Below, piece by piece: positions 9,565 through 33,151 of a DNA stretch of 64,000 bases; positions within the stretch are counted from its first letter, which is position 1; each line of letters starts with the position of its first letter. A program made the translations under genes and the position numbers. The stretch spans positions 1,906-65,905 of the forward strand of contig NZ_JAQTLY010000013.1 of the NCBI RefSeq assembly GCF_028714655.1, read 5' to 3'. The DNA comes from Sulfurimonas sp. GTDB lineage: Bacteria; Campylobacterota; Campylobacteria; Campylobacterales; Sulfurimonadaceae. The notes beneath the pieces were generated by a model, which was not told the DNA's origin, made no database searches, and saw only the letters and a list, made by a program, of their open reading frames with translations.

Positions 9565-9606
9565 TATTGCTTAAAAGCACAAAAATGGTTACAATTTTAA
9601 ACTTAA

Positions 9607-9960
<354 letters not shown>

Positions 9961-9976
9961 TAATTTAACTTTTTTG

Positions 9977-10005
9977 TTCTCTATATCTAAAAAAGATATA
10001 GAGAA
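9977..10005. terminator. Hairpin / probable intrinsic terminator after glnK
   Basis: TTCTCTATATCT-AAAAA-AGATATAGAGAA, a 12-bp perfect stem; the downstream U tract is weak. Confidence 0.55.
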
Positions 10006-10034
10006 TCGACTTATACATTAAAAAATCCTCAAAC

Positions 10035-10051
10035 TGATTAAAATTTAATCA
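10035..10051. promoter_or_regulatory. Second copy of the palindromic candidate operator, upstream of the second amt gene
   Basis: TGATTAA-AAT-TTAATCA; TATAAT at 10082-10087. Confidence 0.6.
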
Positions 10052-10118
10052 ATTAAAAAAAACATTGCTTAATTTCTAAGATATAATCTTTCCTTTATTT
10101 TTCAAAAGGATCTCCTAC

Positions 10119-11294
10119 ATGTTAGAAGCAGATTTTAAATATATTCTCGATACATTCTTTACCCTTTTTGCAATGGTACTGATAATCTTTATGGTTCCCG
10201 GTTTTGCTATGCTTGAAGCAGGGCTTGTCAGGACAAAAAATGTCTCGGCTGTTCTCACCATTAATGTGATGATTTATGCGGTTGCTTCGCTGGCATTTTT
10301 GCTTGTCGGGTATAAACTTGCTTTTGGGAGCTGGGATAGCGTAAATAGTAGCATTTGGGCTCTTTTTATGTTCCAGATGGCATTTGTCGGTAAAACGGTA
10401 AATATTATGAGCGGAGGCGTAAGTGAGCGTGTTCGCATTATTCCGTTGGCTATTTTTACCGTTGTAATGGCTGCCGTTATCTATCCGCTTGTAGTCAATG
10501 TTTGCTGGGGTGCCGATATGATCAAAGGAACTATGCTTGATATCGAAATGTACGATTTGGCAGGTTCAACCGTTATTCACTCAACTGGCGGTTGGGCTCT
10601 TTTAGCGGCAATAATGATTATCGGTCCAAGAAAAGGTCGTTATCAAGACGGAAAAATCAAAGTTATTCCTGCTTCAAATATACCGCTTGTCGTTCTTGGA
10701 GCGCTTTTGCTTTGGATAGGCTGGTTTGGCTTTAACGGCGGAAGCGTAGGCTCAATATCAAGTATAGAGAAGGCTGATTTAGTAGCTAAAACGATTATGA
10801 ATACAAATACGGCAGGACTTGCAGGTGCAATAATTGCCGGAATAATTATGTATATGAGATACAAGCTTCTTGATATTACAATGATACTAAACGGTGCATT
10901 GGGCGGCTTGGTCGCAATTACTTCAGGACCTGATTTGTACGATGCATATACACCGATTTTAATCGGTTTGGTAGGTGGAGCTTTAGTAGTATTTGCGGTT
11001 CCGGTATTTGATAAGTTTAAGCTTGATGACCCAGTCGGAGCACTTTCAGTTCACTTGGTAAACGGTATATGGGGAACTTTGGCTGTTGGAATTTTTGCAG
11101 ATAGCGTATCTTTTGCCGCTCAGCTAAAAGGCGTAGTTCTTGTAGGAATTTTTGCATTTAGCGTTTCATATGTTGTTTTGTATATAATTAATAAAATTTC
11201 TGCATTTAGAGCAAGCGATGACAATCAAGTTGAGGGTATGGATGTAAATGAGTGCGGTGTGGAGTCATACCCTGAATTTAGAAGAGCTATATAG
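10119..11294 (+). CDS. amt: Second ammonium transporter (Amt family, divergent paralogue)
   Basis: MVPGFAMLEAGLVRTKN, DLAGSTVIH, LWIGWFGFNGGS and DDPVGALSVH; no signal peptide. Confidence 0.93.
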   Translation: MLEADFKYILDTFFTLFAMVLIIFMVPGFAMLEAGLVRTKNVSAVLTINVMIYAVASLAFLLVGYKLAFGSWDSVNSSIWALFMFQMAFVGKTVNIMSGGVSERVRIIPLAIFTVVMAAVIYPLVVNVCWGADMIKGTMLDIEMYDLAGSTVIHSTGGWALLAAIMIIGPRKGRYQDGKIKVIPASNIPLVVLGALLLWIGWFGFNGGSVGSISSIEKADLVAKTIMNTNTAGLAGAIIAGIIMYMRYKLLDITMILNGALGGLVAITSGPDLYDAYTPILIGLVGGALVVFAVPVFDKFKLDDPVGALSVHLVNGIWGTLAVGIFADSVSFAAQLKGVVLVGIFAFSVSYVVLYIINKISAFRASDDNQVEGMDVNECGVESYPEFRRAI

Positions 11295-12249: not shown

Positions 12250-12381
12250 TAGATTTCTTTCAAACCAAAAATCCTGAATCAAGTTCAGGATGACCGGAAC
12301 TCATAAATCTCGTCATTCCAAACTTGTTCCGCAAGGGTATTTCCTTTGGTCATTTGGAATCTAGGTTATGCAAAAAGTCTA
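12250..12381 (+). mobile_element. MITE-like composite repeat, family B (132 bp)
   Basis: Imperfect TIRs TAGATTTCTTTCAAACC / GGTTATGCAAAAAGTCTA around two hairpins; near-identical copy at 33715 and inverted copy at 26559. Confidence 0.75.
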
Positions 12382-18874: not shown

Positions 18875-18949
18875 TGGTGACCCCGAGGAGAATCGAACTC
18901 CTGTAACATGGATGAAAACCATGGATCCTTACCGCTAGACGACGGGGCC
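18875..18949 (-). tRNA. tRNA-Glu(UUC)
   Basis: GGCCCCG acceptor stem, anticodon stem CATGG-TTTTCAT-CCATG, GTTCGATTC T-loop, encoded CCA. Confidence 0.96.
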
Positions 18950-18960
18950 AAAAAATAAAA

Positions 18961-19036
18961 TGGTGTCCTGTGATGGATTCGAACCATCGGCCACCTCATT
19001 AAAAGTGAGATGCTCTACCGGCTGAGCTAACAAGAC
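18961..19036 (-). tRNA. tRNA-Lys(UUU)
   Basis: GTCTTGT acceptor stem, TAGCTCAGCCGGTAGAGC D arm, anticodon loop CTTTTAA, GTTCGAATC, encoded CCA. Confidence 0.96.
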
Positions 19037-19065: not shown

Positions 19066-19094
19066 ATTATAGACAAATAGAATTTATATGTCAA
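19066..19094 (-). promoter_or_regulatory. Consensus sigma70 promoter of the tRNA-Lys-Glu operon
   Basis: Minus strand reads TTGACA-17 nt-TATAAT followed by the GC-rich discriminator TCGCGTCC. Confidence 0.85.
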
Positions 19095-19139: not shown

Positions 19140-20063
19140 ATGAATCTTTTTAGCTTTGAATATCCCTTTATCATACTGTTTTTAGCTCCGATAATGTACT
19201 GTATGTACAGATGCAAGGAGCAGATAAAACCTATATACTTTGTTCATCTGCACTTTTTATCTGCAAAAAAGAGTTTTTTAAAACTTGAGTGGCTTTTAAA
19301 AATAGCTATTTTTGTACTTTTGTGTCTCTCTCTTGCTTCGCCCATAGTCGTCGATAAGATAAATCCGTCAAACAGAGACGGAAAAGATATAGTCTTGGCA
19401 ATCGATGGGAGCGGTTCTATGAATGCGTCGGGGTTTGATGTTGATAAAGAGATGAGCAAAGAGGAGCGATTGAGCAGGTTTGAGATAGTAAAGATTATCG
19501 CAACAGATTTTATAAAAAAGAGAGAGAGTGACAATATCGGTGTAGTTTTGTACGGAGATTTTGCTTTTATAGCTTCGCCTATAACTTATGAAAAAGAGAT
19601 AGTAAGCGAGATGCTTAGCTATCTTTCTCATGGTATGGCGGGGCAAAACACGGCTATCGGCGAGGGAATTGCAATGAGTGTCCGTGCATTTAAGCACTCA
19701 AAAGCCAAAACAAAAATCATTATACTTCTAACGGACGGCGAGCATAACAGCGGCGATATTTCTCCAAAAGATGCAATAAAGTTAGCACAAGATGAAAATA
19801 TAAAGATATACACAATAGGTATGGGAAACAAAGGCGAGCCTGATGAGGCGCTTTTGAGAAAAATTGCCGATGAGAGCGGCGGAGAATTTTTTAGCGCGGA
19901 GTCTGCAAAAGAGTTAAAAAAGATTTATGAGAAGATTGATGAGATGGAGTCGTCAAAGATAAAGAGCAAAGAGTATCTTTTGAAAGATTTTTACTATTGG
20001 GTATTTTTGCTTTTAGCACTTGGGATTTTGTCCTATCTGCTTTATAGAGAGGTAAAAAAATGA
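19140..20063 (+). CDS. BatA-like vWA membrane protein (module 1)
   Basis: N-terminal TM (FEYP), MIDAS DGSGS, DNIGVVLYG, ASPITY, GQNTAIG and LLTDG. Confidence 0.85.
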   Translation: MNLFSFEYPFIILFLAPIMYCMYRCKEQIKPIYFVHLHFLSAKKSFLKLEWLLKIAIFVLLCLSLASPIVVDKINPSNRDGKDIVLAIDGSGSMNASGFDVDKEMSKEERLSRFEIVKIIATDFIKKRESDNIGVVLYGDFAFIASPITYEKEIVSEMLSYLSHGMAGQNTAIGEGIAMSVRAFKHSKAKTKIIILLTDGEHNSGDISPKDAIKLAQDENIKIYTIGMGNKGEPDEALLRKIADESGGEFFSAESAKELKKIYEKIDEMESSKIKSKEYLLKDFYYWVFLLLALGILSYLLYREVKK

Positions 20064-21484
20064 GCGTTTTGTATCCGCAATATTTTTGGCTTTTGCTTCT
20101 TCTCTTGCCGCTTTTTATAAAGAGAAATTTTAGAGAGTTTAGAGTTGTAGTCTATGGGTATATGCTGACTTTTGTTTTTATAGTAATTGCACTTAGCCGT
20201 CCCGTCATAGAACAAGAACCTATCGAGTCAAAACAGATGCTAAGCGATGTGATAATCGGGGTTGATTTGTCATACTCTATGCAGACAAACGATATCGAAC
20301 CTACAAGACTTCTCTTTGCGAAAGAGATGTTAAAGAAGTTGGTTGAGAAAGAGCAAAAGAGCAGATTCGGCGTTCTCGGCTTTACTACAAATGCTATTGT
20401 TTTATCCCCGATGACGGAAGATAAAGAGCTTCTTCTTCATCTTTTTGCCTCTCTTGATGAAAAACTCATTATCACGAAAGGCAGCAGCGTTATGTCTGCG
20501 TTGGAGCTTTCAAGAAAGATGTCAAACTCAAAAAAAGCTACGGTCGTACTCTTTAGCGACGGAGCGGATGAGCTTGGTTATGAGTCCGAAGCCGTCTTTG
20601 CTAAAAAGAACAATCTTGTAGTAAACATTTTTATGACTGCTTCAACAATGGGCGGAACGATGAAGCTTGAGGGCGGAGAGCTTTTAAAAGATGAACTCGG
20701 AGATATCGTAGTAAGCAGGGAAAACAGCGCGATTAAAGAGATTTCAGATGCTACGGGCGGAGTTTATACAAAAGATTTTGATAAGCTTCTTGATGCGTTA
20801 GCGGCTCAAAAATCAAAAGACAAAGAGAGCAAAACAACGATAGTTAGAAATCTGGAACTTTTTTACTATTTTATTGTTTTGGCAATTATTATATTTTTAC
20901 TGAGCGTGACGACTCTAAAAAGATTTGTCGTGGCTTTTTTGCTCTTTTTTGGCGTACATCTAAGTGCAAATCAAAATATGGAATTTTTCAATAAAGCGAC
21001 AGAGCTTTACAGAAGCGGCGAGTATGAAAAAGCGCTTGAAAATTATGAAAGAGTAAAATCAAATGACCCGCAAACAAAATCAATCGTTTACTATAATATC
21101 GCCAATTCGCTAGTCAGGCTTCAAGAGTTTAAAAAAGCAAGAGAGGCGTATATCAAATCTTTGACGCTTTTTTACTCTAAAGAGGCAGACGAAAATTTGG
21201 AGTTTATCAGGGATGTAGGTGATAAAAAAGAGATGAGTACGGGGCAACAGCAGAGCAAAGATAAATCGGCGCTTGCCAAAAAAGAGCAAAACTCGCAAAA
21301 GCAAAAAGAGGGCGGCGGTTCAAATATGAATGTAAGTGCGCAAGCCGGCAGCGGAACAGATGATAAGGGTAAAAAAGCAGAGTCTCAGAGTCGGGTGGAT
21401 TTAAACGGCGGCAAAGCAAAACTTAGCTCAAAACAGTATGAACTTATAAATAAGAGGAAAGTAGATGAAAAAAAACCTTGGTAG
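20060..21484 (+). CDS. BatB/BatC-like vWA + TPR protein (module 1)
   Basis: MIDAS DLSYS, DIEPTRL, LFSDG, TPR (YYNIANSLVRLQEFKKAREAY), Q/K-rich linker, C-terminal KPW. Confidence 0.82.
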   Translation: MSVLYPQYFWLLLLLLPLFIKRNFREFRVVVYGYMLTFVFIVIALSRPVIEQEPIESKQMLSDVIIGVDLSYSMQTNDIEPTRLLFAKEMLKKLVEKEQKSRFGVLGFTTNAIVLSPMTEDKELLLHLFASLDEKLIITKGSSVMSALELSRKMSNSKKATVVLFSDGADELGYESEAVFAKKNNLVVNIFMTASTMGGTMKLEGGELLKDELGDIVVSRENSAIKEISDATGGVYTKDFDKLLDALAAQKSKDKESKTTIVRNLELFYYFIVLAIIIFLLSVTTLKRFVVAFLLFFGVHLSANQNMEFFNKATELYRSGEYEKALENYERVKSNDPQTKSIVYYNIANSLVRLQEFKKAREAYIKSLTLFYSKEADENLEFIRDVGDKKEMSTGQQQSKDKSALAKKEQNSQKQKEGGGSNMNVSAQAGSGTDDKGKKAESQSRVDLNGGKAKLSSKQYELINKRKVDEKKPW

Positions 21485-22583
21485 GGTATTTCTAGCAATA
21501 TTGATATTTTTACATGCAGAACTTTTTGCCTCGACTTATACATGGAGCGCAACTTCAAATAAAACGACTGCTTATGTAAACGAGCCTATCTATCTCAAAT
21601 ATATTTGCGAATTTAGTGACCGTGCGGAACTTTTTAGCGTAGAGTTTAATCCGGCAGGCGAGTATGAAAAATATATAGTAAAAAATCTAAGAGAGAGTCA
21701 AAATATAGTTGACGGTAAAAAAATAAACAGCTACGAGTTTGTTGTATTTGCCAAAACGGCAGGGAAGATAAAGTTTGATTTTGAAGCTCTGATGAAGCTC
21801 ACTACCAAAGAGTCTATAGAAGATATGGTAATCGGCAGAGATAATGTAAAAAAAGAGTCGGTTACAAAAAAAACTATTAAACAAGAAATTTTAGAAGTAG
21901 ATATAAAAGAGACAAATAGCTCTTTGGTCGGGGAATTTAATCTTGAAGTTAAGAAAAATGAGCCAAAAGTCAAAGCAAATGAGCCGTATCATCTAACTAT
22001 AACAATAAAAGGCGACGGAAATTTTGAAGCTTTAAAACCGCTGCAGTTTAACATAGAGGGTGTGAAGATTTTTACGGGCGAGGTTGTAAAAAAAGAGAAG
22101 TTAAGCGAAGCGGGCGAGAGCGGAGAGTGGAGTCAAAAATTTGCTTTTGTAGGCGAGAAAGACTTTATCGTTCCCGAATTTAAGATAGAGTATTTTAACA
22201 CCAAAGAGAAAAAACTAGATGCTTTGGTATATGAAGCGCTAACCGTAAGCGTTGAAAAAGGATTTAGCAAAGAGGAACTGCTTGATAAGGCAGAGGATGA
22301 CAGTTTTAAATTTAACTACACTTATCTATACTATGTATTGATTTTTATAGCCGGTTTTTTGATAGGAAAAATAGATATAAAAAAGAGGGTTGTAAAACAG
22401 AGTGCAGAGGAAGAGTTTAAACAAAAGATAGACAAGGCAAAATCTCTTGAAGAGCTTATGATGATTTTAGCGTTAAATGATTCAAAAAAATATGAACAGA
22501 TAATCTTGGATATCGAGAGAAAAAAAATCGTGTCGTTAAAGAGTGCAAAGAATACTAAGCCACTAAGTGAGAGTTTTGTTTGA
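21465..22583 (+). CDS. BatD-like protein (module 1)
   Basis: Signal peptide, beta-rich repeats, GEFNLEV...TITIKGDGNF and a C-terminal TM; follows the vWA pair. Confidence 0.7.
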   Translation: MKKNLGRVFLAILIFLHAELFASTYTWSATSNKTTAYVNEPIYLKYICEFSDRAELFSVEFNPAGEYEKYIVKNLRESQNIVDGKKINSYEFVVFAKTAGKIKFDFEALMKLTTKESIEDMVIGRDNVKKESVTKKTIKQEILEVDIKETNSSLVGEFNLEVKKNEPKVKANEPYHLTITIKGDGNFEALKPLQFNIEGVKIFTGEVVKKEKLSEAGESGEWSQKFAFVGEKDFIVPEFKIEYFNTKEKKLDALVYEALTVSVEKGFSKEELLDKAEDDSFKFNYTYLYYVLIFIAGFLIGKIDIKKRVVKQSAEEEFKQKIDKAKSLEELMMILALNDSKKYEQIILDIERKKIVSLKSAKNTKPLSESFV

Positions 22584-23274
22584 TATAGTAACTTAGCAAA
22601 TACTCTATTGCTTTTTGGATATTATTACTATCGTAAAACCGGATCATTACCTGATTAAATTCCAATTTGTCTTTAGCTTTGATATTTAAGATAGGATAGC
22701 CATTGTCTAAAAGTATCCCATTCATCATTAACCTTGATGTTCTTTTGTTGCCATCGAAGAAAAATTGAGATTTTGCACCAAATAAAAAGTATGTTATAGC
22801 TCTAATTATTGGATGATTTATCTTTTTTATCTCAGTTGTTCCATTTTCAAATATAGTATCAAGTTCGGATGCTTTTGGCGGTATATAGTCTGTTCCGCCT
22901 ATATTTACTCCACTTGTTCTAAACTCTCCCCAAGTGATAGCTTCTTCTTGTGCAACTTTACTATGAAGTTTCAAAAGTGTGGGCTTGTCTAAAGCAAACT
23001 CATTTTTTTCTATCAGTTCAAAGAGTAGATTGACACTTCTATTTTGATTGAGTATCTGTTGCTCATCGCTTAATTTGTGTCCACCTACAGTTACACCCTC
23101 AAGAAGTGTCTGCACCTCCGGAAAAGTCATAGCATTTCCCTCAAGCGCTGAAGTGTTATAGATAAAGTCTATTTTGTCTTTTTTTGCTAGCATAAACGAC
23201 AAATTTTTATTTGGTATAAAAATATTTAGATTTGTTGTGTCTATATTATTGACGATATTACTATTTATTTGCAT
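22555..23274 (-). CDS. Fic/Doc-family protein with atypical active-site motif
   Basis: YNTSALEGN inhibitory-type motif, GEFRTSGVNIGG flap, and QFFFDGNKRTSR at the Fic motif position. Confidence 0.85.
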   Translation of the reverse strand: MQINSNIVNNIDTTNLNIFIPNKNLSFMLAKKDKIDFIYNTSALEGNAMTFPEVQTLLEGVTVGGHKLSDEQQILNQNRSVNLLFELIEKNEFALDKPTLLKLHSKVAQEEAITWGEFRTSGVNIGGTDYIPPKASELDTIFENGTTEIKKINHPIIRAITYFLFGAKSQFFFDGNKRTSRLMMNGILLDNGYPILNIKAKDKLEFNQVMIRFYDSNNIQKAIEYLLSYYIKQNSHLVA

Positions 23275-23484
23275 GTTATATTACCTCCAAATATCCACTT
23301 TTGCGGCTTCGTGCCAAATACGCTTATCCATTTTATATACTTATATCTCTTTAATAAGTCCATTCGGTATTGTATAATAGTAATATAAATATGCAGAGAG
23401 TAAGTTTTTCTGATACAATTTATATACTGCGATATTATAGAAAAAGCATATAATATCGTTTTGATTTTAATAAAAGGTTTTTTT

Positions 23485-24243
23485 ATGAAAAAGATTGGTA
23501 GCGTTTTTACTTTATTGACGGCAGTCGGTATCACGGTTTTGGGTTTGAGCTTGGGCGGGTGCAGTGCTATGGATACTGCAATTAAAAAAAGAGATTTGGA
23601 TGTTCAGACTAAAATGTCCGAGACTGTATTTTTAGAGCCGGTAGCACCGGATAAGAGAGTCGTTTATTTTGATATCAGAAACACATCCGACAAAGAGATG
23701 AATGTAAAAGAGAACATAATATCTGCTTTTAAAAGCAGAGGGTATCGCATTACCGAAGATCCTAAAGAAGCAACTTATATGCTTCAGGGAAATATCTTAA
23801 AGGTAGGCAAATCTAACCTTAAAGAGGCGCAATTACATCTTGGCTCCGGTTTTGATGCGGGGTTAACGGGTGCAGCCGTAGCAGGTGGAGCCTCATATGC
23901 ATTAGGCGGAAGCAACCGAGGTACCGCTGGAGCGGCTTTAGCCGGAGCTGCTATAGGTTTTGTGGGTGATGCTTTGGTTACGGATGTTATGTATGTTATG
24001 GTTACGGATTTGCAGATTCGTGAAAGACCGTTAGAGGGTGAGGTTGTTACTCAAACGCAAAAAGCATATTTGGAACAAGGAAGTTCAACTACTACAAAAC
24101 AAGATATCAAAGGCGGAAAAGTGGAGTGGAAAACATATCGTACCCGTATAGTCAGTACCGCAAACAAGATGAATCTTGAGTTTGAAGAGGCAAAACCGGT
24201 TCTTGAGAATGCATTGGCAAAATCAATCTCAGGAATTTTTTAA
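23485..24243 (+). CDS. traT: TraT-family outer-membrane lipoprotein
   Basis: Lipobox LGGC, KKRDLDVQTKMSETVFLEP, IRNTSDK, glycine zipper, YVMVTDLQIRER and TRIVSTANKMNLEFEEAKP. Confidence 0.85.
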   Translation: MKKIGSVFTLLTAVGITVLGLSLGGCSAMDTAIKKRDLDVQTKMSETVFLEPVAPDKRVVYFDIRNTSDKEMNVKENIISAFKSRGYRITEDPKEATYMLQGNILKVGKSNLKEAQLHLGSGFDAGLTGAAVAGGASYALGGSNRGTAGAALAGAAIGFVGDALVTDVMYVMVTDLQIRERPLEGEVVTQTQKAYLEQGSSTTTKQDIKGGKVEWKTYRTRIVSTANKMNLEFEEAKPVLENALAKSISGIF

Positions 24244-24269
24244 TTGAATGCTATAAGTAGTTGTCGAAT

Positions 24270-24332
24270 TAGATCCTGAATCAAGTTCATGATGACAAAT
24301 TTTCCGTCATTCCAGGCTTGACCTGGAATCTA
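24270..24332. repeat. REP-like palindromic doublet, family B core without outer TIRs
   Basis: TAGATCCTGAA-TCAAG-TTCATGATGAC ... CGTCATTCCAGG-CTTGA-CCTGGAATCTA. Confidence 0.8.
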
Positions 24333-24447
24333 ATTTATGATTTAATCAGAGATTTCAATTTTTATGGAGCTGTTTTGTTATTATATAAATATTCTTACTT
24401 TTTTTTCTTATAAATTTCTTCTTTTAGTTAATAATAATTTATTAAAA

Positions 24448-24456
24448 TGTTATAAT
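24448..24456 (+). promoter_or_regulatory. Extended -10 promoter for the CsgG-like/LPP20 pair
   Basis: TGTTATAAT (TGnTATAAT) 25 nt upstream of the ATG, behind a long AT-rich stretch. Confidence 0.5.
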
Positions 24457-24481
24457 AAAAATAGTATAAAAAAGGCTTTTT

Positions 24482-25486
24482 ATGATTAAAATTTTTAAGA
24501 TTTTATCGTTATTTTTAATTTTAATCATAAGCGTCGGATGTTCACAAAAAGTTACTATCCGTGCGCTTGAACCATCCGAAATAGACCGCGCTGCATCGAC
24601 AAAAAAGCTTAGCGTAGCCGTGTTTGAACATGACAGAGTAGGGCTTTCAGACAAGATAGAGGCAAATCTCGCAAATCAAAAAATCGATAACAAAAACTAT
24701 TTTACTATGATCAACAGAAAAAATTTTGACAAAATAATAGCTGAACAAAAGATACAAAACAGCGGTCTTGTGGATATCTCAACTGCCGCTCAGGTCGGTA
24801 ATTTGCTGGGTGCAGAGGCAATAATCTCCGGCAGTGTCGGCAGAGTGGCTTCAAATGATACGCACTATTTGGAGACTCGCTTAAGATGTGCGGACAATAA
24901 GTGCAAAGAGCTGGTTCCTTATAATGTCGGGTGCACAAAAAGAGAAGTCGCTTTATCTGCGGAAGTTCGTATGGTTGATGTTGCAAAAGGCGATATTATC
25001 TATGCCGATACGATGAGCAAAACATCTCAGTGGTCGCATTGCAGCGATGATTCTAACCCTTTGCCATCAACGGAGATGGCGGCACAAAAATTAGCTTCTA
25101 CTATTGCAGCAAATTTTGCATACAAATTAACACCGCATTATCGTTATTTTGAGGTTGTTTTACTGGAAAAGCCGGATATAAAGTACAACGACAGAGAGGA
25201 TAAACTCTTGGATGTCTCTTTGGAGTACATTAAGCAAGACAGGTTTGACAAAGCGGAAAAATTTCTTATTGATTTGATTGATTCTACGGGGCAGAAAAGT
25301 TATGTTCCTTTCTATAATTTGGGTGTTATAAAAGAGGCGAACGGCAAATATGCAGAGGCGCAAAAATATTATAAAAGGGCAGACGAGCTGATGATAAAAC
25401 CGGTAGGCGAGATAAGCCAAGCATGTCTTAGGATTGAAGATTTGATAGAAAAAAACAACAGAGCCAAAGAGCAGTTGACAAAGTAG
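24482..25486 (+). CDS. CsgG/HfaB-like lipoprotein with C-terminal TPR
   Basis: Lipobox SVGC; CsgG-type core (MINRKNFDKIIAEQKIQNSGLVD...VGNLLGAEAIISGSV; VRMVDVAKGDIIY); TPR (FYNLGVIKEANGKYAEAQKYY). Confidence 0.7.
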   Translation: MIKIFKILSLFLILIISVGCSQKVTIRALEPSEIDRAASTKKLSVAVFEHDRVGLSDKIEANLANQKIDNKNYFTMINRKNFDKIIAEQKIQNSGLVDISTAAQVGNLLGAEAIISGSVGRVASNDTHYLETRLRCADNKCKELVPYNVGCTKREVALSAEVRMVDVAKGDIIYADTMSKTSQWSHCSDDSNPLPSTEMAAQKLASTIAANFAYKLTPHYRYFEVVLLEKPDIKYNDREDKLLDVSLEYIKQDRFDKAEKFLIDLIDSTGQKSYVPFYNLGVIKEANGKYAEAQKYYKRADELMIKPVGEISQACLRIEDLIEKNNRAKEQLTK

Positions 25487-25491
25487 GATGC

Positions 25492-26502
25492 GTGGCAAAT
25501 AAATTTTTTTCCGTAATAATTTTAATAATCGGCTTACTTTTTCTATCCGGCTGTTTATCCAAAAAAGAGGTTGATTTAACCCAAAAAAAAGTGCTTCCCT
25601 CTTGGTATGCAAATCCTCCGCAAACAACGCCTGCAACACTCTACGCAACGGGTGAGGGTGAAGATAGGGATGATGCCGTGGCAAATGCGCTAAGTATGAT
25701 GGCTTCAACCCTAAGCGTATCCATAGCATCGCAATTTAGCTCAAAAAAAGTTGTAAAAGAGGGTTTGGAAAACAGCATCAGTTCAACCGTTTCAAACGAG
25801 GTTCAAAGCGATGTTAAAAAAATCCGTATCAGCCATTATGAAATTCTTAACTCTTGGGAACTCGGGTTTAAAAAATATATAGTTTTAATCAAATCCGATA
25901 AACAAAAGCTCTTTGAGAGTATGAAAAACGAGTTGGAACAAAAATTTGCTTTTATAGAGAGCGAGATAAAACAGTCTCAAAAATATAATGCGCTAGAGCA
26001 GTTAAATAGCTACAAAAAAGCAAAAGCCGATACGAATGATGTACCGAATATATTAACCGTAATGAATGTTTTAAACGGCACTTTTGATGCAAGAGAGTAT
26101 ATCGGCAAGATGGAGATGATAGAGAGCCGTTACGGTACTTTGCTTGCATCTATTACCGTGAGTATAGAGTGTGATGCCGAGTCAAAAAATTTAGAAGCAC
26201 CGATAAGAGAGGGACTTGGTTTAAAAAAAGTGCAAATCAAAAACGGCAGCGGTGAAAAACACTTTTATATAACGGTATCTTCAAATATCCAAAAAGCATC
26301 TTCATACGGATTTGCGCTTGCACGCTCTGCTATAGAGATAACCGTAAAAGATTATAAAAACTCTGTTATAGGAAGCAAAAAGTTAAATATCACTGGGCAA
26401 TCTACGCAAGGTTATGAGATAGCTAAAGAGAGTGTTGCCGTAAAATTCGGTGAGATGATAAAAAAAGAGGGTGTAGGTAAAGTTTTGGGACTTGATTTGT
26501 AG
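25492..26502 (+). CDS. LPP20-domain lipoprotein
   Basis: GTG start, lipobox LSGC, LPSWY...YATGEGEDRDDAVANALSMMA typical of the LPP20 family. Confidence 0.72.
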   Translation: MANKFFSVIILIIGLLFLSGCLSKKEVDLTQKKVLPSWYANPPQTTPATLYATGEGEDRDDAVANALSMMASTLSVSIASQFSSKKVVKEGLENSISSTVSNEVQSDVKKIRISHYEILNSWELGFKKYIVLIKSDKQKLFESMKNELEQKFAFIESEIKQSQKYNALEQLNSYKKAKADTNDVPNILTVMNVLNGTFDAREYIGKMEMIESRYGTLLASITVSIECDAESKNLEAPIREGLGLKKVQIKNGSGEKHFYITVSSNIQKASSYGFALARSAIEITVKDYKNSVIGSKKLNITGQSTQGYEIAKESVAVKFGEMIKKEGVGKVLGLDL

Positions 26503-26558
26503 TTTTTTTCACTTATTATTAACACCGTTTTGATATACTCCGAGAATAAAAGTAGTAA

Positions 26559-26747
26559 TAGACTTCTTGCATAACTAAAAAAAATAGATTCCAAAGCAAG
26601 TTTGGAATGACGAAGTTGTCAAGTTTGAAATGACGAGATTTCAGAGTTTCCGTCATCTTTGGAATGGCGAGATTTATGACTTTTCGTCATCCTGAACTCG
26701 CGTGCCCTTTGGGTATGATTTGGAATCTTTGGTTTGAAAGAAATTTA
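26559..26747 (-). mobile_element. MITE-like composite repeat, family B (189 bp, inverted, internally expanded)
   Basis: Begins TAGACTTCTTGCATAAC and ends GGTTTGAAAGAAATTTA (reverse complement of the 12250 left end); contains GATTCCAAA..TTTGGAATGAC and CGTCATCCTGAAC hairpins. Confidence 0.72.
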
Positions 26748-26774
26748 ATAAAATAATAAACAAGGTTACAATTT

Positions 26775-27722
26775 ATGATTTCAAAAATAGAGTTGATAAA
26801 AAAAGAGGTTTCAAAGGTTGTCGTAGGTCAAGAGAAGATGATAGATGCTCTTCTTATCGGGCTGTTGTGTGAGGGGCATATCCTTATAGAGGGTGTTCCG
26901 GGGCTTGCAAAAACTACGACGGTCAATGCACTTGCTCAAAGCTTGGGACTTAACTTTAAACGCGCCCAATTTACTCCCGACTTGCTTCCCTCAGACATAC
27001 TCGGAGCAGAGATTTACGATCCGCAAAGCAATAGTTTTAAAATCAAAAAAGGTCCTATTTTTACAAATCTGCTCTTAGCAGACGAGATAAACCGCTCTCC
27101 CGCAAAAGTCCAATCCGCACTTCTTGAAGTTATGCAGGAGAAGCAAGTTACGCTCGGCGATACTTCGTTTAAGTTAGAACCTCCGTTTTTTGTTATGGCG
27201 ACTCAAAATCCGGTTGAACAAGAGGGAGTTTACCAGCTTCCGGAAGCTCAACTCGATAGATTTATGTTAAAACTTATAGTCGATTACAATACAAAGGCGC
27301 AAGAGTTAGAGATCGCCAGAAGAATTTCAAGCGGCAATTTTGAGACGATTCATAGTGTTATTACACATGATGATTTGGAAGAGTTAAAAAAAGCAGTAAA
27401 AGCCGTGCATGTAGATTCGCAGGTTGAAGAGTATATGATAGAGCTTGTAAACGCAACGAGAAATCCTGAGGAGTACGGACTTGGAGAGATAAAAAACTAT
27501 ATCCAGTTCGGTGCATCGCCTCGTGTGAGTATCGATATGTTTAAAGCCGTAAAAGCTATGGCATATTTAAGAGGAAAAGATTTTGTAACGCCTGTCGATG
27601 TGGCTTTCATCGCAAAAGAACTTATGCGTCACCGTATTGTTTTAACCTATGAGGCAGAGGCGGAGGGTATTACGACCGATGAGATTATACAGAGAGTTTT
27701 AGAAACCGTAGCAATACCGTAA
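26775..27722 (+). CDS. moxR: MoxR-family AAA+ ATPase
   Basis: LIEGVPGLAKT (Walker A), AQFTPDLLPSDI, LLADEINRSPAKVQSALLEVMQE, ATQNPVEQEG and EAQLDRF. Confidence 0.95.
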   Translation: MISKIELIKKEVSKVVVGQEKMIDALLIGLLCEGHILIEGVPGLAKTTTVNALAQSLGLNFKRAQFTPDLLPSDILGAEIYDPQSNSFKIKKGPIFTNLLLADEINRSPAKVQSALLEVMQEKQVTLGDTSFKLEPPFFVMATQNPVEQEGVYQLPEAQLDRFMLKLIVDYNTKAQELEIARRISSGNFETIHSVITHDDLEELKKAVKAVHVDSQVEEYMIELVNATRNPEEYGLGEIKNYIQFGASPRVSIDMFKAVKAMAYLRGKDFVTPVDVAFIAKELMRHRIVLTYEAEAEGITTDEIIQRVLETVAIP

Positions 27723-27738
27723 GCCAAAGTATACAGAT

Positions 27739-28569
27739 ATGAGTAAACTACAAAAAATTTTGATTCGTGCAAGACGACAGGTTTTTAGCGAAATGGTCGG
27801 TAACAATCCATCCATCTTTCAAGGCGAGGGCTATGATTTTATTGAACTTCGCGAATATATGAGCGGTGATGATATCCGTCATATCGACTGGAATATTACC
27901 GCTAAAATGCAAAAACCTTTTATCAAAATCTTTCGCGAAGAGAGAGAACTGAGTGTCGTGATAGTTTCTGTTTTAAACGGAAGCGTACATTTCGGTTCAA
28001 AAAAATTCAAACAAGAGAGTATCGCCGAGGTAGTAGCACTTCTTGGGTATTCTACTCTTAAAAACGGAGATTTGCTTAGTTCGTATATATTTACGGATGA
28101 GATGATTTCACACTCAAAACCGAGCAAAAAACTACATCTTGTTCAAAAAAGCGTTGAAGAGGTTTTAAATTTTGATGCGTTAAACCAGAAAGTTGATTTT
28201 AAAGTTATCGCAGATACTCTTTTTAAAAGACTCAAGAGAAAATCGCTTATATTGATTGTCGGTGATTATTTTGAGATGCCTGATTTTAAACTTTTAGCTA
28301 AAAAACATGAGGTAATCGCAGTCATTGTAAGAGACAGACTTGAAGAAAATCCGCCTGAGATGGGTTTCGCGTCTTTGGTAGACCCCCAGAGCGGAGCGGT
28401 GCTTGAGGGTGATTTTAACGCTTCAAGTGTAAGAGCTTATAGTAAAAAAGTTGCTATGCATGACCATAATCTCTTTGAGAGGCTTAGAAAAGATGACATA
28501 AGATTTACAAAAGTGTATACCGATTCTATTGCAAGCGTAGAACTTCGCAGACTTTTTGGAGGCAGATAG
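27739..28569 (+). CDS. DUF58 family protein (MoxR partner)
   Basis: GEGYDFIELREYMSGDDIRHIDWNITAK...IFREERE. Confidence 0.9.
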   Translation: MSKLQKILIRARRQVFSEMVGNNPSIFQGEGYDFIELREYMSGDDIRHIDWNITAKMQKPFIKIFREERELSVVIVSVLNGSVHFGSKKFKQESIAEVVALLGYSTLKNGDLLSSYIFTDEMISHSKPSKKLHLVQKSVEEVLNFDALNQKVDFKVIADTLFKRLKRKSLILIVGDYFEMPDFKLLAKKHEVIAVIVRDRLEENPPEMGFASLVDPQSGAVLEGDFNASSVRAYSKKVAMHDHNLFERLRKDDIRFTKVYTDSIASVELRRLFGGR

Positions 28570-28977
28570 ATGGCTGATATGCAAAGTTACGATATACCGC
28601 TTCACGATATAAAGCCGATTGTCCGGATAGAAGAGTATTCGCTATACTATTTTTTAGGCATCTCTCTTTTTGCCGTTGTTTTGGTCTTACTACTCTCTTA
28701 TCTGCTTTTTTCTTGGCTGAAAAAACGAAACCGATACAACAAAAGAAGAGAACATTTTGAGAGTTTAAAAACGCTGGATTTAAAGAGGACGAAAGAGAGT
28801 GCGTATGATATTACTTTTTACGGCGCAACATTTAAAAACGATTCTTTAAGACATAAAGAGTCGTATGATAACTTAGTCGGCAGGCTAGAGCGCTACAAGT
28901 ATAAAAAAGAGGTTGAGGGGTATGATGATGAGACTCTCGGTTATATAGAACTTTATAAAGGTATGATTGATGTTTGA
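28570..28977 (+). CDS. DUF4381-like small membrane protein of Bat operons
   Basis: PLHDIKP followed by one TM; position between DUF58 and the vWA gene. Confidence 0.6.
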   Translation: MADMQSYDIPLHDIKPIVRIEEYSLYYFLGISLFAVVLVLLLSYLLFSWLKKRNRYNKRREHFESLKTLDLKRTKESAYDITFYGATFKNDSLRHKESYDNLVGRLERYKYKKEVEGYDDETLGYIELYKGMIDV

Positions 28978-29899
28978 CGGAATCTACTTTGAGTTTCCTC
29001 AAATAGCATTCGTATTTCTTCTTTTTATCTTGTGTGCGAAGCTCTGCAAAATGAGATTGCCTTCTATCTACTTTCCTCATACAAGCAGTTTTTTAAAAAA
29101 CTCCGTTGCGGTATCAAAGCCGCTTTTTTTTCTAAAATGGATCGGAATCGTGATGATGATAGTTGCACTTATGTCACCGGTAAAAGATGAGAAGTACGAG
29201 TTAGAGCCAAAAGAGGGGTATGATATTGCTTTGATTTTAGATACTTCCGAGTCCATGAAAGCGGAAGGATTTGACGCAAATAATCAACGCTTAAACAGAT
29301 TTGATGTCGTAAAGAGCATAGTTAGCGATTTTATAGCCAAAAGAAAAAACGACAACATAGGTTTGGTTGTTTTTGGAGCATTCTCTTTTATAGCTTCTCC
29401 GCTTACTTATGATGAAAATATTTTAAATAAGATTGTCTCACAGCTATATATAGGAATGGCGGGAAAATATACCGCGCTCAACACTTCTCTTGCCCAAAGC
29501 GTAAATCTTTTGAAAATGAGCAAATCAAAAACCAAAATAGCTATTTTGCTTACAGACGGTTACAGTACGCCCGAGATAGACAAAATCCCGCTTGCCGTTG
29601 CCGTAGAGATGGTAAAAAAAGAGGGCATAAAGGTCTACCCCATAGGTATAGGAATGGCGCATGAGTACAACAGGGAAGTACTGCAAAAAATAGCAAATGA
29701 GAGCGGCGGAGTTGCTTTTAGCGCTTCAAGTGCCAATGAACTAAAAGAGATATACCGAAAAATCGATGAACTGGAAAAATCAGAGATAAAGGGTGAGAGT
29801 TTCAGTTATGCAAAATATTACTATCAATTTCCGCTCTTTATATCGCTTCTTTCTTTGATGCTCTATATCTATCTTAGAAATAAAAGAGGGTATGCATGA
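28970..29899 (+). CDS. batA: BatA-like vWA membrane protein (module 2)
   Basis: FEFP TM, MIDAS DTSES, DNIGLVVFG, ASPLTY and LLTDG. Confidence 0.85.
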   Translation: MFDGIYFEFPQIAFVFLLFILCAKLCKMRLPSIYFPHTSSFLKNSVAVSKPLFFLKWIGIVMMIVALMSPVKDEKYELEPKEGYDIALILDTSESMKAEGFDANNQRLNRFDVVKSIVSDFIAKRKNDNIGLVVFGAFSFIASPLTYDENILNKIVSQLYIGMAGKYTALNTSLAQSVNLLKMSKSKTKIAILLTDGYSTPEIDKIPLAVAVEMVKKEGIKVYPIGIGMAHEYNREVLQKIANESGGVAFSASSANELKEIYRKIDELEKSEIKGESFSYAKYYYQFPLFISLLSLMLYIYLRNKRGYA

Positions 29900-31710
29900 C
29901 TTTTTTGCACCCTGAATTTTTATACTATATGCTGCCTCCGCTGTTTATCCTTTTTGGTTTTTTGCTTACCCAAAAAGAGTCTAATGCCTACTTTTTTTCC
30001 AAAGAAGTTATGGATAAACTTCGCGTAAGAGCCGATACTTTGACGCTTCAAGCCAGAAATGCTCTTTTTTTGCTTATGGGATTTTTTATGATAATTGCCC
30101 TTGCCCAGCCCGTCATAAAAGAGGGTAAAGCTCAGGTGATGGCAAAAAGCGCGGATATTATGATTGCCATAGATATATCGGACTCTATGCTTGCTACAGA
30201 TATTTATCCAAACCGCTTGGAAGCGGCAAAACAAAAGGTGCTTGCTCTTTTGGGCGGGGATTTTAATGAGCGTGTAGGCATAGTGGCATTTGCAAAAAAT
30301 TCATATCTTGTTTCACCGCTTAGTTTTGATAAAAGTGCGGTGTCGTTTTTGCTTCGTCAGTTGGATACATCGTCTATTACCGAAAAAGGAACCGATTTTT
30401 TATCTGTTTTGGATGTGGTGAGCAAAGCGCAAGAGAGTCAGGATAAAAAGTATCTTCTAATTTTGAGCGACGGCGGAGACAATGATGATTTTAAAAATGA
30501 GATAGAGTTGGCAAAAAAGCACAATATAACGGTTTTTATCTTAGGCACCGCAACAAAAAAAGGTTCTCCGGTAAAGCTTCAAGACGGAACTTTTATAAAA
30601 TATAACGGTGATATCATTATCTCAAAACTGAATGAGAAAATTGCACCTTTGGCTACAAATACAGGCGGAGTTTATATAGAGAGCACAACCTCCTTGGATG
30701 ACATAAAAACAATGCTAAGCGAGATAAAGAGCGTGAGTGAGAAAAAAGAGCTAAAGAGCCAAGAGATTCAAAAAAACAGACCGCTCTTTTACTATCCTCT
30801 TGGAGTTGCACTTCTTATTTTACTTATCGCTACAAGCTCTCTTAGCAAGAGAAAAAGTGTAAATACGGCATCTCTGTTTATACTCTTCTCTCTTTTATTT
30901 AACCCATCATATACGCAAGCGGGAATGTTTGATTTTATGGAGCTTAAAAAAGCAAAAGAGGCTTATGAAAACGGAGAGTTTGAAGAGTCGGCAAAGTTAT
31001 ATGAAAAGTATGCAAAAGAGAGTGCAAAACCTGAAGCGTACTTTAATGCGGGAAATGCTTTTTATAAACAAAAAAAGTATAAAGAGGCGATAGAGTCATA
31101 CAATAAAGCAGCGTTTGCCGATGAAAATGCAAAAGCAAAAAATTTCTCAAACTTGGGTAATGCTTATGCCAAAGAGGCGAAACAGGATAGTCTGCAAAAG
31201 GCAAAAGAGGCATATGAAAAATCGCTTGGCATCAAAGAAGACAAAGAGACAAGAGAAAATCTGCAAGAAGTTGAAAAACTCCTAGAGAAGCAAAAAGAGA
31301 GCGGACAAAACAAAGAGAATAAACAAAACGATAAAGACCAAAACTCAAAAGAGGGTGAAAAAAAATCGGACGAAAAAGATAAATCAAAAGAGCAAAAAGA
31401 GAGTTCAAAAGATAAAGAGTCCAAAGACAAAGCTAAAAATCCCGATGAGGCTAAAAGTCAAAAAGAGCAAAACGGCAAATCCGATCAACCTAAGCAGAGT
31501 AAAAAAGATGAGCCTAAAGAGGCAGATAAAAGTGATAAAAATGCTTCAACAAGTTCACATACGACAGAGCAAAAGCCCGATAAAGAGAATATGAGCGATG
31601 CAGAACAGCAGAAGTGGATAGAGCAACTGGGTACTAAAAACAGTACATATCTCTATAAGCTAAATGATGAAAAATCAAAGAGAAGTAATTTAAACGAGAA
31701 ACCTTGGTAG
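29896..31710 (+). CDS. batB: BatB/BatC-like vWA + TPR protein (module 2)
   Basis: MIDAS DISDS, DIYPNRL, LSDGG, TPRs (YFNAGNAFYKQKKYKEA; NLGNAY), long K/E/Q/D low-complexity linker, C-terminal KPW. Confidence 0.82.
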   Translation: MTFLHPEFLYYMLPPLFILFGFLLTQKESNAYFFSKEVMDKLRVRADTLTLQARNALFLLMGFFMIIALAQPVIKEGKAQVMAKSADIMIAIDISDSMLATDIYPNRLEAAKQKVLALLGGDFNERVGIVAFAKNSYLVSPLSFDKSAVSFLLRQLDTSSITEKGTDFLSVLDVVSKAQESQDKKYLLILSDGGDNDDFKNEIELAKKHNITVFILGTATKKGSPVKLQDGTFIKYNGDIIISKLNEKIAPLATNTGGVYIESTTSLDDIKTMLSEIKSVSEKKELKSQEIQKNRPLFYYPLGVALLILLIATSSLSKRKSVNTASLFILFSLLFNPSYTQAGMFDFMELKKAKEAYENGEFEESAKLYEKYAKESAKPEAYFNAGNAFYKQKKYKEAIESYNKAAFADENAKAKNFSNLGNAYAKEAKQDSLQKAKEAYEKSLGIKEDKETRENLQEVEKLLEKQKESGQNKENKQNDKDQNSKEGEKKSDEKDKSKEQKESSKDKESKDKAKNPDEAKSQKEQNGKSDQPKQSKKDEPKEADKSDKNASTSSHTTEQKPDKENMSDAEQQKWIEQLGTKNSTYLYKLNDEKSKRSNLNEKPW

Positions 31711-31732
31711 GAACTGATTTAAAGGAAAAAAA

Positions 31733-33151
31733 TTGAACACTATTTTAAAACTGCTATTTTTACTGCTGATAACTTCACATGGAGTAGAAGCGTCTGTTAT
31801 AGCTAAAGTCGATTCTAAAAAAGTAGAACTTGGAGAGATGGTTACTTACTCTTTGACGATTGTAGGGGAGGATGTCACAAGACCAAATATACAAAGATTG
31901 TGCGATAACGATGTCATCTCTACGAGTTCCCAAACAAATATGCAGATTATTAACGGAAAAGTTAGTAAAAGTTATACGCTAAGTTATAAATTCGTGCCGC
32001 AAAAGAGTTGTAAGATTGAACCTCTCGAAATTGAGATTAACTCTAAGCTAGAAGCAAGCAATGCGGTAGAGATAGAAGTAGTTCCTGTAAGCGGAACAAA
32101 AGATTCGGACTTTGCTTTAACTCTTAGCAGTGATAAAAAAGAGCTTTTTGTCGGTGAAGCGTTTGACTTGACGCTTACTTTTAAGCAAAAAAGCAATGCC
32201 GAAGCCGTTGATAGTAAATTTACGCCTCCGGAGTTAAAAGGTTTTTGGGTTAAAAGTGAGTCAAAACCCCAGAGATATGAAGATGCAAAATATATAATAA
32301 CAAAGATAATCTATACTATGGCGCCTCAAAGAGCAGGGGAACTTATCGTTACAAAAGCTCAAATGCAGATAGCTTCAAGAAGCAGCGGTGCAGATAGTTG
32401 GGGCGCTTGGATTCCTACTATTAAGTGGAAAACTTACTTCTCAAATGAACTGACTTTTGATGTAAAACCGCTTCCGTCTGGAGTTACATTGGCAGGCAGT
32501 TTTAGCATAAATGCAACGGTCGATAAAACTCAAGTAGATGCAAATGAGCCGGCAAATGTAACTATAGAAGTGCAGGGAAGCGGAAATTTAGAGGATATAA
32601 AAAGTTTTAAACCAAATATCGATGGAGTAGCGGTTTTTGATGAAAAGATTGTCATTGACGGTGCAAAACTGACTCAAAAGATAACTTTTGTCGCTGAGGG
32701 AGATTTTGTCATCCCATCATTTTCTCTAAACTATTTTGATACAAAAACAAGAGATGTAAAAACCGTATCGACCAAAGAGATAGCCCTAAATGTAAAAAAC
32801 TCCAAACAAAAAGAGAGCTTAAATATACAAAGAGAAGTTCCAAAAGCAGAGCAAACAGAGATGCTCTCAACTGAAAAACAAGAGAATTCTTTGTTGTTTG
32901 TACTATTTTTATTAGGTCTTGTATGCGGGATTTTGATTATGATTTTTAAAGGTAAAATGAGCTTTAAAAGAGAGCAAAAAAGCTCCCCAAAAGAGCCAAA
33001 AACTCTTCTGATGAGACTTCTTCCTTTTAAGGATGATGCAGAAGTAAAAGAGATAATAGAAAATTTAGAAAAAAATATATACTCAAATCAAAATATACAA
33101 TTAGATAAAAAAGTTCTAAATAAAATTAAAAATAGATATAAAATTTTATAG
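31733..33151 (+). CDS. batD: BatD-like protein (module 2)
   Basis: TTG start, signal peptide, AKVDSKKVELGEMVTY, SSQTNMQIING, GSFSI...TIEVQGSGN and a C-terminal TM. Confidence 0.78.
   Translation: MNTILKLLFLLLITSHGVEASVIAKVDSKKVELGEMVTYSLTIVGEDVTRPNIQRLCDNDVISTSSQTNMQIINGKVSKSYTLSYKFVPQKSCKIEPLEIEINSKLEASNAVEIEVVPVSGTKDSDFALTLSSDKKELFVGEAFDLTLTFKQKSNAEAVDSKFTPPELKGFWVKSESKPQRYEDAKYIITKIIYTMAPQRAGELIVTKAQMQIASRSSGADSWGAWIPTIKWKTYFSNELTFDVKPLPSGVTLAGSFSINATVDKTQVDANEPANVTIEVQGSGNLEDIKSFKPNIDGVAVFDEKIVIDGAKLTQKITFVAEGDFVIPSFSLNYFDTKTRDVKTVSTKEIALNVKNSKQKESLNIQREVPKAEQTEMLSTEKQENSLLFVLFLLGLVCGILIMIFKGKMSFKREQKSSPKEPKTLLMRLLPFKDDAEVKEIIENLEKNIYSNQNIQLDKKVLNKIKNRYKIL

Follow-up and report, generated by a model that had tools for sequence, protein, structure and literature searches.

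What does a second set of Bat-type envelope genes do beside a single MoxR motor, and where does it come from? The question is raised by a locus of Sulfurimonas sp. (assembly GCF_028714655.1) in a stretch of 64,000 nucleotides of contig NZ_JAQTLY010000013.1 (positions 1,906 to 65,905 of the forward strand), the whole of which we call the window. Here a Bat-type operon with its MoxR ATPase, its DUF58 partner and one BatA-BatB/C-BatD triplet (module 2) is preceded by another such triplet (module 1), which has no dedicated motor. Operons that combine MoxR, DUF58 and von Willebrand factor A (vWA) proteins are widespread in Bacteroidota, Spirochaetes, Campylobacterota and other phyla, where they have been linked to stress tolerance and virulence. 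To our knowledge no mechanism is known and no complex has been solved for any Bat operon.

We found that module 1 is, judging from gene order and phylogeny, the orphaned adaptor half of a second, permuted Bat-like system that has been fused to the canonical motor cassette, because the module-1 type of the family Nitratiruptoraceae keeps its own MoxR, DUF58 and small membrane protein. In the following, L and G numbers are our handles for loci and genomes, and g and f numbers those for genera and families.

Module 1 consists of three plus-strand genes. A1 (19140..20063) encodes a BatA-type protein with three transmembrane (TM) segments and a predicted periplasmic vWA domain (Pfam VWA, 89 bits) whose metal-ion-dependent adhesion site (MIDAS) reads DGSGS. 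B1 (20060..21484), which overlaps A1 by 4 nt, encodes a BatB (vWA, MIDAS DLSYS) fused to a BatC (TPR), as seen from its Pfam VWA_2 and TPR matches and, in NCBIfam, from a Leptospira-type BatB at residues 35-192 and a BatC at residues 310-429. D1 (21465..22583) is a short BatD-type gene that scores 30.5 bits with the Pfam BatD model (cut-off 24.1).

The motor genes and module 2 follow on the same strand. MoxR (26775..27722) is an AAA+ ATPase of the canonical Bat type (AAA_3 214 bits, AAA_lid_2 66 bits), and 16 nt after it starts DUF58 (27739..28569; Pfam 142 bits), a soluble vWA-like protein that is presumably the cytoplasmic partner of MoxR. A small membrane protein of 135 aa (28570..28977) is only DUF4381-like, with a Pfam match below the cut-off (E 0.0056); its position, size and topology (N-terminus outside, one TM segment, K/R-rich domain) fit that family. 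A2 (28967..29899; Pfam VWA) is a BatA-type vWA membrane protein with the MIDAS DTSES, B2 (29896..31710; Pfam VWA_2 and TPR) a fused BatB/BatC with the MIDAS DISDS, a long K/E/D-rich linker and the end ...EKPW-COOH, and D2 (31733..33151) a BatD with three BatD repeats (Pfam BatD 105 bits over 3 stretches). The open reading frames (ORFs) of both modules thus lie exactly where the sequence-only reading had placed them, on the plus strand from 19.1 to 33.2 kb, and the motifs it had quoted (DGSGS, DTSES, DLSYS, DISDS and the ...KPW ends of both B proteins) are all present.

Pairwise BLASTP aligned the two modules collinearly, with 43% identity between A1 and A2 (2e-73), 28% between B1 and B2 (2e-48) and 27% between D1 and D2 (9e-21). 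D1 aligns to residues 125-363 of D2 and therefore lacks the first BatD repeat.

The host assembly (2.19 Mb, 26 contigs, 96.3% complete) contains, by profile search, one strong AAA_3 gene, one true DUF58 gene and four VWA_2 genes, all four within the Bat locus. A search with the MoxR protein likewise returned one copy, and the BatD model matched D2 only in a genome-wide search. The single motor proposed from the sequence alone is thus supported, with one MoxR and one DUF58 in a genome that is 96% complete and whose missing 4% could hold a further copy.

Origin of module 1

The family Nitratiruptoraceae has two Bat-like systems at separate loci with separate motors. One is canonical: MoxR (71% identical to that of the window), DUF58, DUF4381, A2, B2 and D2, in synteny with prephenate dehydrogenase (PDH) and BamA. 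The other, which we call system 1, has the order PgpA-A-B-D-MoxR1-DUF58-small TM protein with overlapping junctions; its MoxR1 is 55-56% and its DUF58 30-32% identical to the counterparts in the window. The small TM protein has a short N-terminus, one TM segment, a K/R-rich tail and an FYKY or PYRY motif, at which the DUF4381-like protein of the window has RYKY. System 1 was seen directly in two genomes (G156, G182) and in three related database contigs with matching flanking genes, and the coordinates of the A1 and MoxR matches put the same pairing in three more (G132, G148, G150). Relatives of MoxR1 outside the Nitratiruptoraceae lineage were searched for and none was found, the long-contig matches that we inspected all sharing the IspDF/response-regulator/ATP-sulfurylase/PgpA synteny. 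The order A-B-D-MoxR1-DUF58-TM is a cyclic permutation of the canonical MoxR-DUF58-TM-A-B-D. The Campylobacterales accordingly have two or more ancient types of Bat-like operon, related to one another by such a permutation.

Phylogenetic trees connect module 1 with system 1. We rooted a tree of A proteins on B-type vWA domains; in it, the A proteins of system 1 and the A1 proteins of the Sulfurimonadaceae form one clade (97/100), and the B1 proteins do likewise (97/94). The split between the A1 and A2 clades precedes that between the Sulfurimonadaceae and the Nitratiruptoraceae. MoxR1 (95/91) branches outside all canonical Bat MoxRs (95/89), and the MoxR of the window lies inside the canonical Sulfurimonadaceae clade (99/99); its tightest relative is from Sulfurimonas sp. 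STA_12 (97% identity), and its relatives from named genomes are all Sulfurimonas or Sulfurimonadaceae. That MoxR1 arose by duplication of the canonical MoxR of its own family is rejected by the approximately unbiased (AU) test (p 0.014), with the caveat that the tested group was defined after the tree had been seen. A further caveat is the length of the MoxR1 branch, as faster evolution could account in part for the basal position.

The sequence-only reading had taken the two modules for an old duplication. Its age holds, the A1/A2 divergence being older than the family split; module 1 was not copied locally from module 2. The same reading had counted a second moxR/DUF58 pair accompanying module 1 as evidence against a shared motor: such a pair is absent from the host genome and exists in the sister family, where it explains the origin of module 1. 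We also considered the MoxR and DUF58 of the Sulfurimonadaceae as recombinants of the MoxR1 and canonical types, and rejected this on a sliding-window comparison, in which identity was higher to the canonical type along the full length.

A trace of motor loss is preserved in a genome of family f10 (L135, G172 contig 2, around 6985-10669, minus strand). There A, B and a truncated D gene are followed by a broken DUF58 relic (tblastn 5.5e-19) with stops and frameshifts in several frames, and no MoxR lies beside it; the locus records the loss of a motor next to a triplet of the module-1 type. A tblastn search for remnants of MoxR, DUF58 or the small TM protein beside six stand-alone module-1-type triplets of Sulfurimonadaceae found none. 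Gene orders, trees and the relic collectively show that the ancestral place of module-1-type triplets was directly 5′ of a MoxR-DUF58 motor.

Some Sulfurimonadaceae, the host genome not among them, carry one or two extra complete canonical MoxR-DUF58-DUF4381-A-B(-C)-D systems (L125, L126, L128, L130). Two such additional systems stand head to tail, 1068 nt apart, in G115 (L128), and tandem canonical systems of this kind could be a source of the permuted A-B-D-MoxR order.

Conservation of the array and of both adaptor sets

A gap-free nine-gene array is the norm in the Sulfurimonadaceae. The order A1-B1-D1-MoxR-DUF58-DUF4381-A2-B2-D2, followed by PDH on the minus strand and BamA, is uninterrupted in five loci (L013, L021, L100, L101, L103), and the spacing from D1 to MoxR in 12 loci ranges from -10 to +109 nt, with 4-nt overlaps in three g17 genomes. 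For a tally by hand we used the 59 genomes of the family that, among the matches listed, have an A1-type gene and the main MoxR on one contig. A1 starts 3.5-3.85 kb before MoxR in 37 of the 59, which leaves room for B1 and D1 only; another 18, with the locus of the window among them, carry 0.7-5 kb of inserted DNA between the modules, and in 4, all of genus g10, the two genes lie about 0.9 Mb apart.

By this comparison, the 4.2 kb gap between the modules in the window is a later insert. It holds a Fic-family gene (22555..23274, minus strand; Pfam Fic), inserted in antisense orientation and parting D1 from the genes that follow in the array, and a plus-strand block of TraT, a CsgG-like/TPR lipoprotein and an LPP20 lipoprotein (23461..26502; Pfam) between D1 and MoxR. 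Many Sulfurimonas loci have CsgG-like and LPP20 genes at this point, a subset of them TraT as well, and relatives such as L026, L039 and L042 have a co-directional 12-gene array with gaps of 3-115 nt to the neighbouring genes. The Fic segment (22553-23449 of the window) has no counterpart in the closest relative (L025, 97% MoxR identity), where only 58 bp lie between the matching blocks; relative to that strain, the Fic insertion is found in the host strain only. The Fic gene is convergent with D1 and overlaps its 3′ end by 29 nt.

Next to its position, the maintenance of module 1 is informative. We compared the ratio of nonsynonymous to synonymous substitution rates (dN/dS) against the closest relative, at which dS is unsaturated (0.32-0.44). 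The ratios were 0.096 for A1, 0.089 for B1 and 0.125 for D1, 0.087 for A2, 0.131 for B2 and 0.240 for D2, and 0.049 for MoxR and 0.043 for DUF58. The DxSxS motif is kept in 42 of 42 full-length A1 and 41 of 41 full-length B1 sequences scanned, and in an alignment of 33 B1 sequences the full MIDAS (D69/S71/S73/T139/D167) and the C-terminal block LSS..YE.IN.....E..PW are invariant. Module 1 is, as these ratios and motifs indicate, under purifying selection. This agrees with the view, formed from the sequence alone, that both copies are maintained; relaxed selection in module 1 (dN/dS near 1), which would have spoken against it, was not seen.

The B1 tail reads ...LSSKQYELINK....EKKPW-COOH. In nearly all Bat-like systems of Campylobacterales that we examined (L105-L137), ...PW-COOH is the end of the BatC-type TPR subunit, and the end shared by B1 and B2 (21440-21484 and 31666-31710 in the window) is not a special link between these two proteins. 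Module-1-type TPR proteins have in common a longer tail, ..INKGY..E..PW. TPR domains often bind C-terminal peptides, and a PW tail after a long, charged and disordered linker could be a signal for self- or cross-association.

The lineage distribution shows that the two sets can part company. Module 2 with the motor stands alone in most of the Campylobacterales families sampled. The opposite has happened in genus g17, in the three genomes inspected (L014, L015, L022): A1-B1-D1 is intact and overlaps MoxR, A2 is shortened to 244-259 aa, A2 and B2 both lack the DxSxS motif, B2 lacks the PW end, and D2 is deleted, B2 adjoining PDH. The reduced A2 and B2 genes are intact ORFs with a dN/dS of about 0.1-0.2 at saturated dS. 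The motor is kept at 72-75% identity, DUF58 and DUF4381 are conserved with it, and module 1 and motor genes are translationally coupled. With one exception, the g17 genomes sampled have a single MoxR each (among the matches listed). In g17, module 1 would thus be the only MIDAS-competent adaptor set beside the motor, and we take this as the best indirect pointer that module 1 can use the canonical motor.

Topology, motor sharing and its alternatives

We predicted topology from hydropathy and the positive-inside charge rule. The A proteins have a first TM segment, a K/R-rich loop of about 30 aa, a second TM segment, the vWA domain, a third TM segment and a K/R-rich end; in A1 the TM segments are at residues 3-21, 53-71 and 280-298. 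The B proteins start in the same way and continue with a TM hairpin and the TPR domain, and a YF.H motif is conserved in the A and B loops alike. The D proteins consist of a signal or anchor helix, Ig-like domains, one TM segment (387-405 in D2) and a K/R-rich cytoplasmic tail of 67 aa. The DUF4381-like protein begins with a short stretch outside, crosses the membrane once and continues as an 89-aa K/R-rich cytoplasmic domain that carries the motif ...RYKYKKE. DUF58 has no TM segment. In MoxR, hydropathy marks one marginal segment (residues 23-41, score 1.61) immediately N-terminal to the Walker A region; we assign it to the soluble AAA+ core and not to a TM helix.

Structure models agree with the domain assignments. 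The AlphaFold2 (AF2) model of D1 (mean predicted local distance difference test score, pLDDT, 84.5) shows two beta-sandwiches, a TM helix and a cytoplasmic helical bundle; a Foldseek search of the PDB with it gave generic tandem Ig-like matches only, with TM-scores of at most 0.2. In the B1 model (mean pLDDT 75) the vWA and TPR domains are confident, and residues 389-454 and the tail are disordered, including a K/E-rich linker. Docking of the B1 PW tail into its own TPR groove was also considered; the AF2 monomer is uninformative on it, tail and linker having a pLDDT below 50. By PDB search, MoxR matches 2r44 (3.7e-109) and the vWA domains match the BatB structure 3ibs as well as 4rck and 4jdu; the same search gave no match for DUF58 or BatD and none to any Bat complex, the matches being isolated vWA domains and one MoxR only.

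The predicted topology bears on how a motor could act at all. For BB0173 of Borrelia, experiments have shown that the protein sits in the inner membrane and exposes its vWA domain to the periplasm (PMC5700661). If the vWA domains of A and B are likewise periplasmic, as predicted, their MIDAS sites cannot be touched by a cytoplasmic ATPase. The sequence-only reading had started from vWA proteins as adaptors of MoxR, a premise that therefore does not fit the hydropathy prediction and the three-TM layout of BB0173. DUF58 would be the only cytoplasmic vWA-like partner and could fill the role of ViaA or NorD.

Under the explanation that we favour, the locus would be a Bat-type envelope system with a second, motor-less BatA-BatB/C-BatD triplet fused onto its upstream side. 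The Sulfurimonadaceae have lost the system-1 motor, the triplet now stands directly 5′ of the canonical cassette with its stop often overlapping the MoxR start, and the central MoxR-DUF58-DUF4381 trio fills the motor position of both operon types. In the host strain, lipoprotein genes and the antisense Fic gene have later broken up the array. A single MoxR hexamer, DUF58 and the DUF4381-like protein would act at the cytoplasmic face, where the motor may engage the K/R-rich A and B loops together with the cytoplasmic helices that form the tails of D1 and D2, and would assemble or remodel two alternative inner-membrane complexes. The periplasmic parts of each would be two MIDAS-bearing vWA heads, a TPR arm with the ...PW-COOH tail and the Ig-like BatD domains. 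The two periplasmic sets may bind different envelope partners and would work in parallel, not as one obligate complex.

We give this explanation, the orphaned triplet together with the shared motor, an even chance as a whole, and the sharing of the motor by both adaptor sets, to which gene order, translational coupling in relatives and the decay in g17 point indirectly, stands for us in equal balance when taken by itself. We infer that coupling runs through DUF58, the DUF4381-like protein, the A/B loops and the D tails. It is possible, at somewhat under even chances, that the locus arose by an "overlap fusion" of two permuted operons in which one motor serves two periplasm-facing complexes and lineages shift their dependence from one to the other. 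Within that overlap-fusion proposal, g17 may tentatively be seen as a lineage in which the swap to module 1 is nearly completed.

Besides the caveats on the MoxR1 tree, several points weigh against the favoured explanation. We know of no biochemical function established for a Bat system anywhere, and periplasmic vWA domains, as predicted for A and B, would not be classical MoxR adaptors. In the host strain, 4.2 kb and a convergent Fic gene split module 1 from MoxR, which makes co-transcription unlikely. Intact module-1-type triplets lie far from any MoxR or on other contigs in g10 (at about 0.9 Mb), g21, g22 and part of the Sulfurimonas genomes, several of which have a single MoxR (among the matches listed); linkage to the motor is thus not required, and a motor-independent role is possible. 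The stand-alone form of A1, A1b, groups with the A proteins of Nitratiruptoraceae and not with the motor-adjacent form (95/90). The link to aerotolerance or a microaerophilic life that the sequence-only reading had drawn is a conjecture, and the reported phenotypes conflict: complete bat deletion in Leptospira biflexa gave no phenotype (PMC3557215), and moxR has stress and virulence effects in Riemerella anatipestifer (PMC11834572).

The unlinked triplets lead to the alternative that module 1 has become independent of any motor, a self-sufficient periplasmic scaffold or adhesion complex left after the loss of MoxR1 and its DUF58, whose present position is historical. Besides the triplets with a single MoxR and no motor relic nearby, it would account for the Fic gene that cuts the module 1 of the window off from MoxR and for the lack of an own DUF4381-like gene. 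Genes acting in trans, however, need no linkage; the D1-MoxR junction is kept, often with overlap, in two families with two MoxR lineages, and g17 retains its motor where module 1 is the sole MIDAS-competent set. We consider motor independence unlikely, if by no means negligible. Less probable still is that modules 1 and 2 form one obligate, larger hetero-complex around the motor, the second option of the sequence-only reading. In its favour, co-directional arrays of 9 to 12 genes with tiny gaps are usual in the family, and the modules are possibly complementary, D1 missing a BatD repeat and B1 having the shorter linker. Yet each module is known from genomes in which the other is missing or decayed: module 2 and motor alone make up the system in most families sampled, the Nitratiruptoraceae systems have separate loci and motors, g17 keeps module 1 while module 2 loses its MIDAS, PW tail and D2, and at least one near-complete Sulfurimonas genome (G113) has an A2-type match only (among the matches listed). 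We accordingly hold the obligate complex to be improbable.

Two further alternatives fare much worse. Module 1 could be a redundant duplicate drifting toward loss, as its want of a dedicated motor, its absence or relocation in some congeners (among the matches listed) and the position of D1 as its fastest-evolving gene might suggest. Present data already contradict such drift, and we give it next to no credence: its dN/dS of 0.09-0.13 at unsaturated dS does not exceed that of module 2, the MIDAS and tail motifs are invariant, its ORFs are intact in more than 40 genomes, and the duplication is older than the family split. It is just as hard to credit that the motor of module 1 is a 334-aa AAA+ protein encoded on contig 3 of the host assembly, whose AAA_3 match of 34 bits exceeds the Pfam cut-off. 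This candidate for a second motor, which lacks AAA_lid_2 and any MoxR-specific match and has no DUF58 or vWA neighbour, was rejected; its top NCBIfam match, at 15 bits, is NtrX-like. At its locus (about 157 kb on contig 3; L002 182-3020) an unannotated 419-aa ORF overlaps the AAA+ gene and a ferritin-like gene follows; the AAA+ gene has weak AAA_3, AAA_5 and sigma-54-activator matches, and the locus is not Bat-related.

If the overlap-fusion proposal is true, this would be the first natural case of MoxR motors and membrane adaptor sets behaving as exchangeable modules, and it would offer matched natural genotypes, with an own motor in Nitratiruptor, a shared one in Sulfurimonas and a swapped one in g17. 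The comparative series of two systems with two motors, two adaptor sets with one motor, and one set decaying while the motor is kept suits two questions, namely the specificity of the ATPase for an adaptor set and the cytoplasmic segments that couple motor and periplasm. A tempting assumption is corrected as well: the vWA domains with the MIDAS sites and MoxR are predicted to be on opposite sides of the membrane. For the biology of Sulfurimonas the result is descriptive.

Surroundings of the locus and known systems

On the 5′ side of module 1 lie a GGDEF/PAS sensor, a HEPN/nucleotidyltransferase pair and, on the minus strand, two tRNA genes. The HEPN/nucleotidyltransferase block is absent from the closest relative, which has unrelated sequence in its place. 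The tRNA genes, tRNA-Glu(UUC) and tRNA-Lys(UUU), lie between this pair and A1 (18875-19036 and 19066-19094), with a perfect TTGACA-17-TATAAT just upstream of both on the minus strand, probably the tRNA promoter. On the 3′ side, D2 is followed by PDH on the minus strand and then BamA, and these two genes also come after D2 in many loci of Sulfurimonadaceae, Nitratiruptoraceae, f4 and f11.

The spacer between LPP20 and MoxR measures 272 nt in the window, 115 nt in L025 and 38-80 nt in the other relatives compared. It contains three direct repeats of TTTGRAATGRCGA (26601-26670, plus strand), with a fourth copy at 12310-12322 on the minus strand; four matches were reached in 0 of 100 shuffles, and the repeat could be an operator or a small inserted element. 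A scan of the AT-rich locus for sigma-70 promoters and terminators gave counts near those of shuffled sequence and set no operon boundaries. Two D1-type genes occur in two Sulfurimonas single-cell genomes, in tandem in one (L067 5679-7864) and split by an LPP20-like gene in the other (L072 4413-7757).

In published work Bat gene sets are single, apart from a BatA/BatB pair and a BatD-domain duplicate within one Bacteroides fragilis operon (PMC5700661). Our literature search found no description of a doubled Bat triplet or of a permuted A-B-D-MoxR order, and system 1 of the Nitratiruptoraceae is apparently new to the literature. The B. fragilis operon has the order moxR-DUF58-hyp-batA-batB-batC-batD-batE, with homologues in Riemerella anatipestifer (PMC5700661, PMC11834572). 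Module 2 with its motor has the same parts in the same order, whereas here BatB and BatC are fused and a second A-B/C-D triplet stands upstream of the motor. Of the parts of a Bat operon, MoxR, DUF58, two MIDAS vWA proteins (twice), TPR and BatD are present and BatE is not: a Pfam scan of the ORFs between 15.4 and 37 kb found none with the SH3 domain that BatE combines with TPR. BatE is absent or fused in spirochaete loci as well and is thus not universal (PMC5700661).

The spirochaete loci (Leptospira batA/batB/batD; Borrelia BB0170-BB0176) share the three-TM BatA layout with the locus of the window, and B1 matches the Leptospira BatB and BatC models of NCBIfam. They are described as having a single BatA and a single BatD in this region (PMC5700661), whereas here every adaptor gene is present twice. 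The classical MoxR-vWA pairs RavA-ViaA, NorQ-NorD and CbbQ-CbbO (PMC9976466, PMC13036017, PMC10585395) likewise place a MoxR-class AAA+ gene beside vWA/MIDAS genes. There the ATPase and a soluble vWA protein come together in the cytoplasm, whereas in the locus described here the MIDAS-bearing vWA domains are predicted to lie across the membrane. System 1 of the Nitratiruptoraceae is orthologous to module 1, with the order A-B-D and then the motor and the shared ...INKGY..E..PW tail. It keeps MoxR1, DUF58 and the small TM protein, whereas the lineage of the window has lost them and would use, or at least abuts, the canonical motor.

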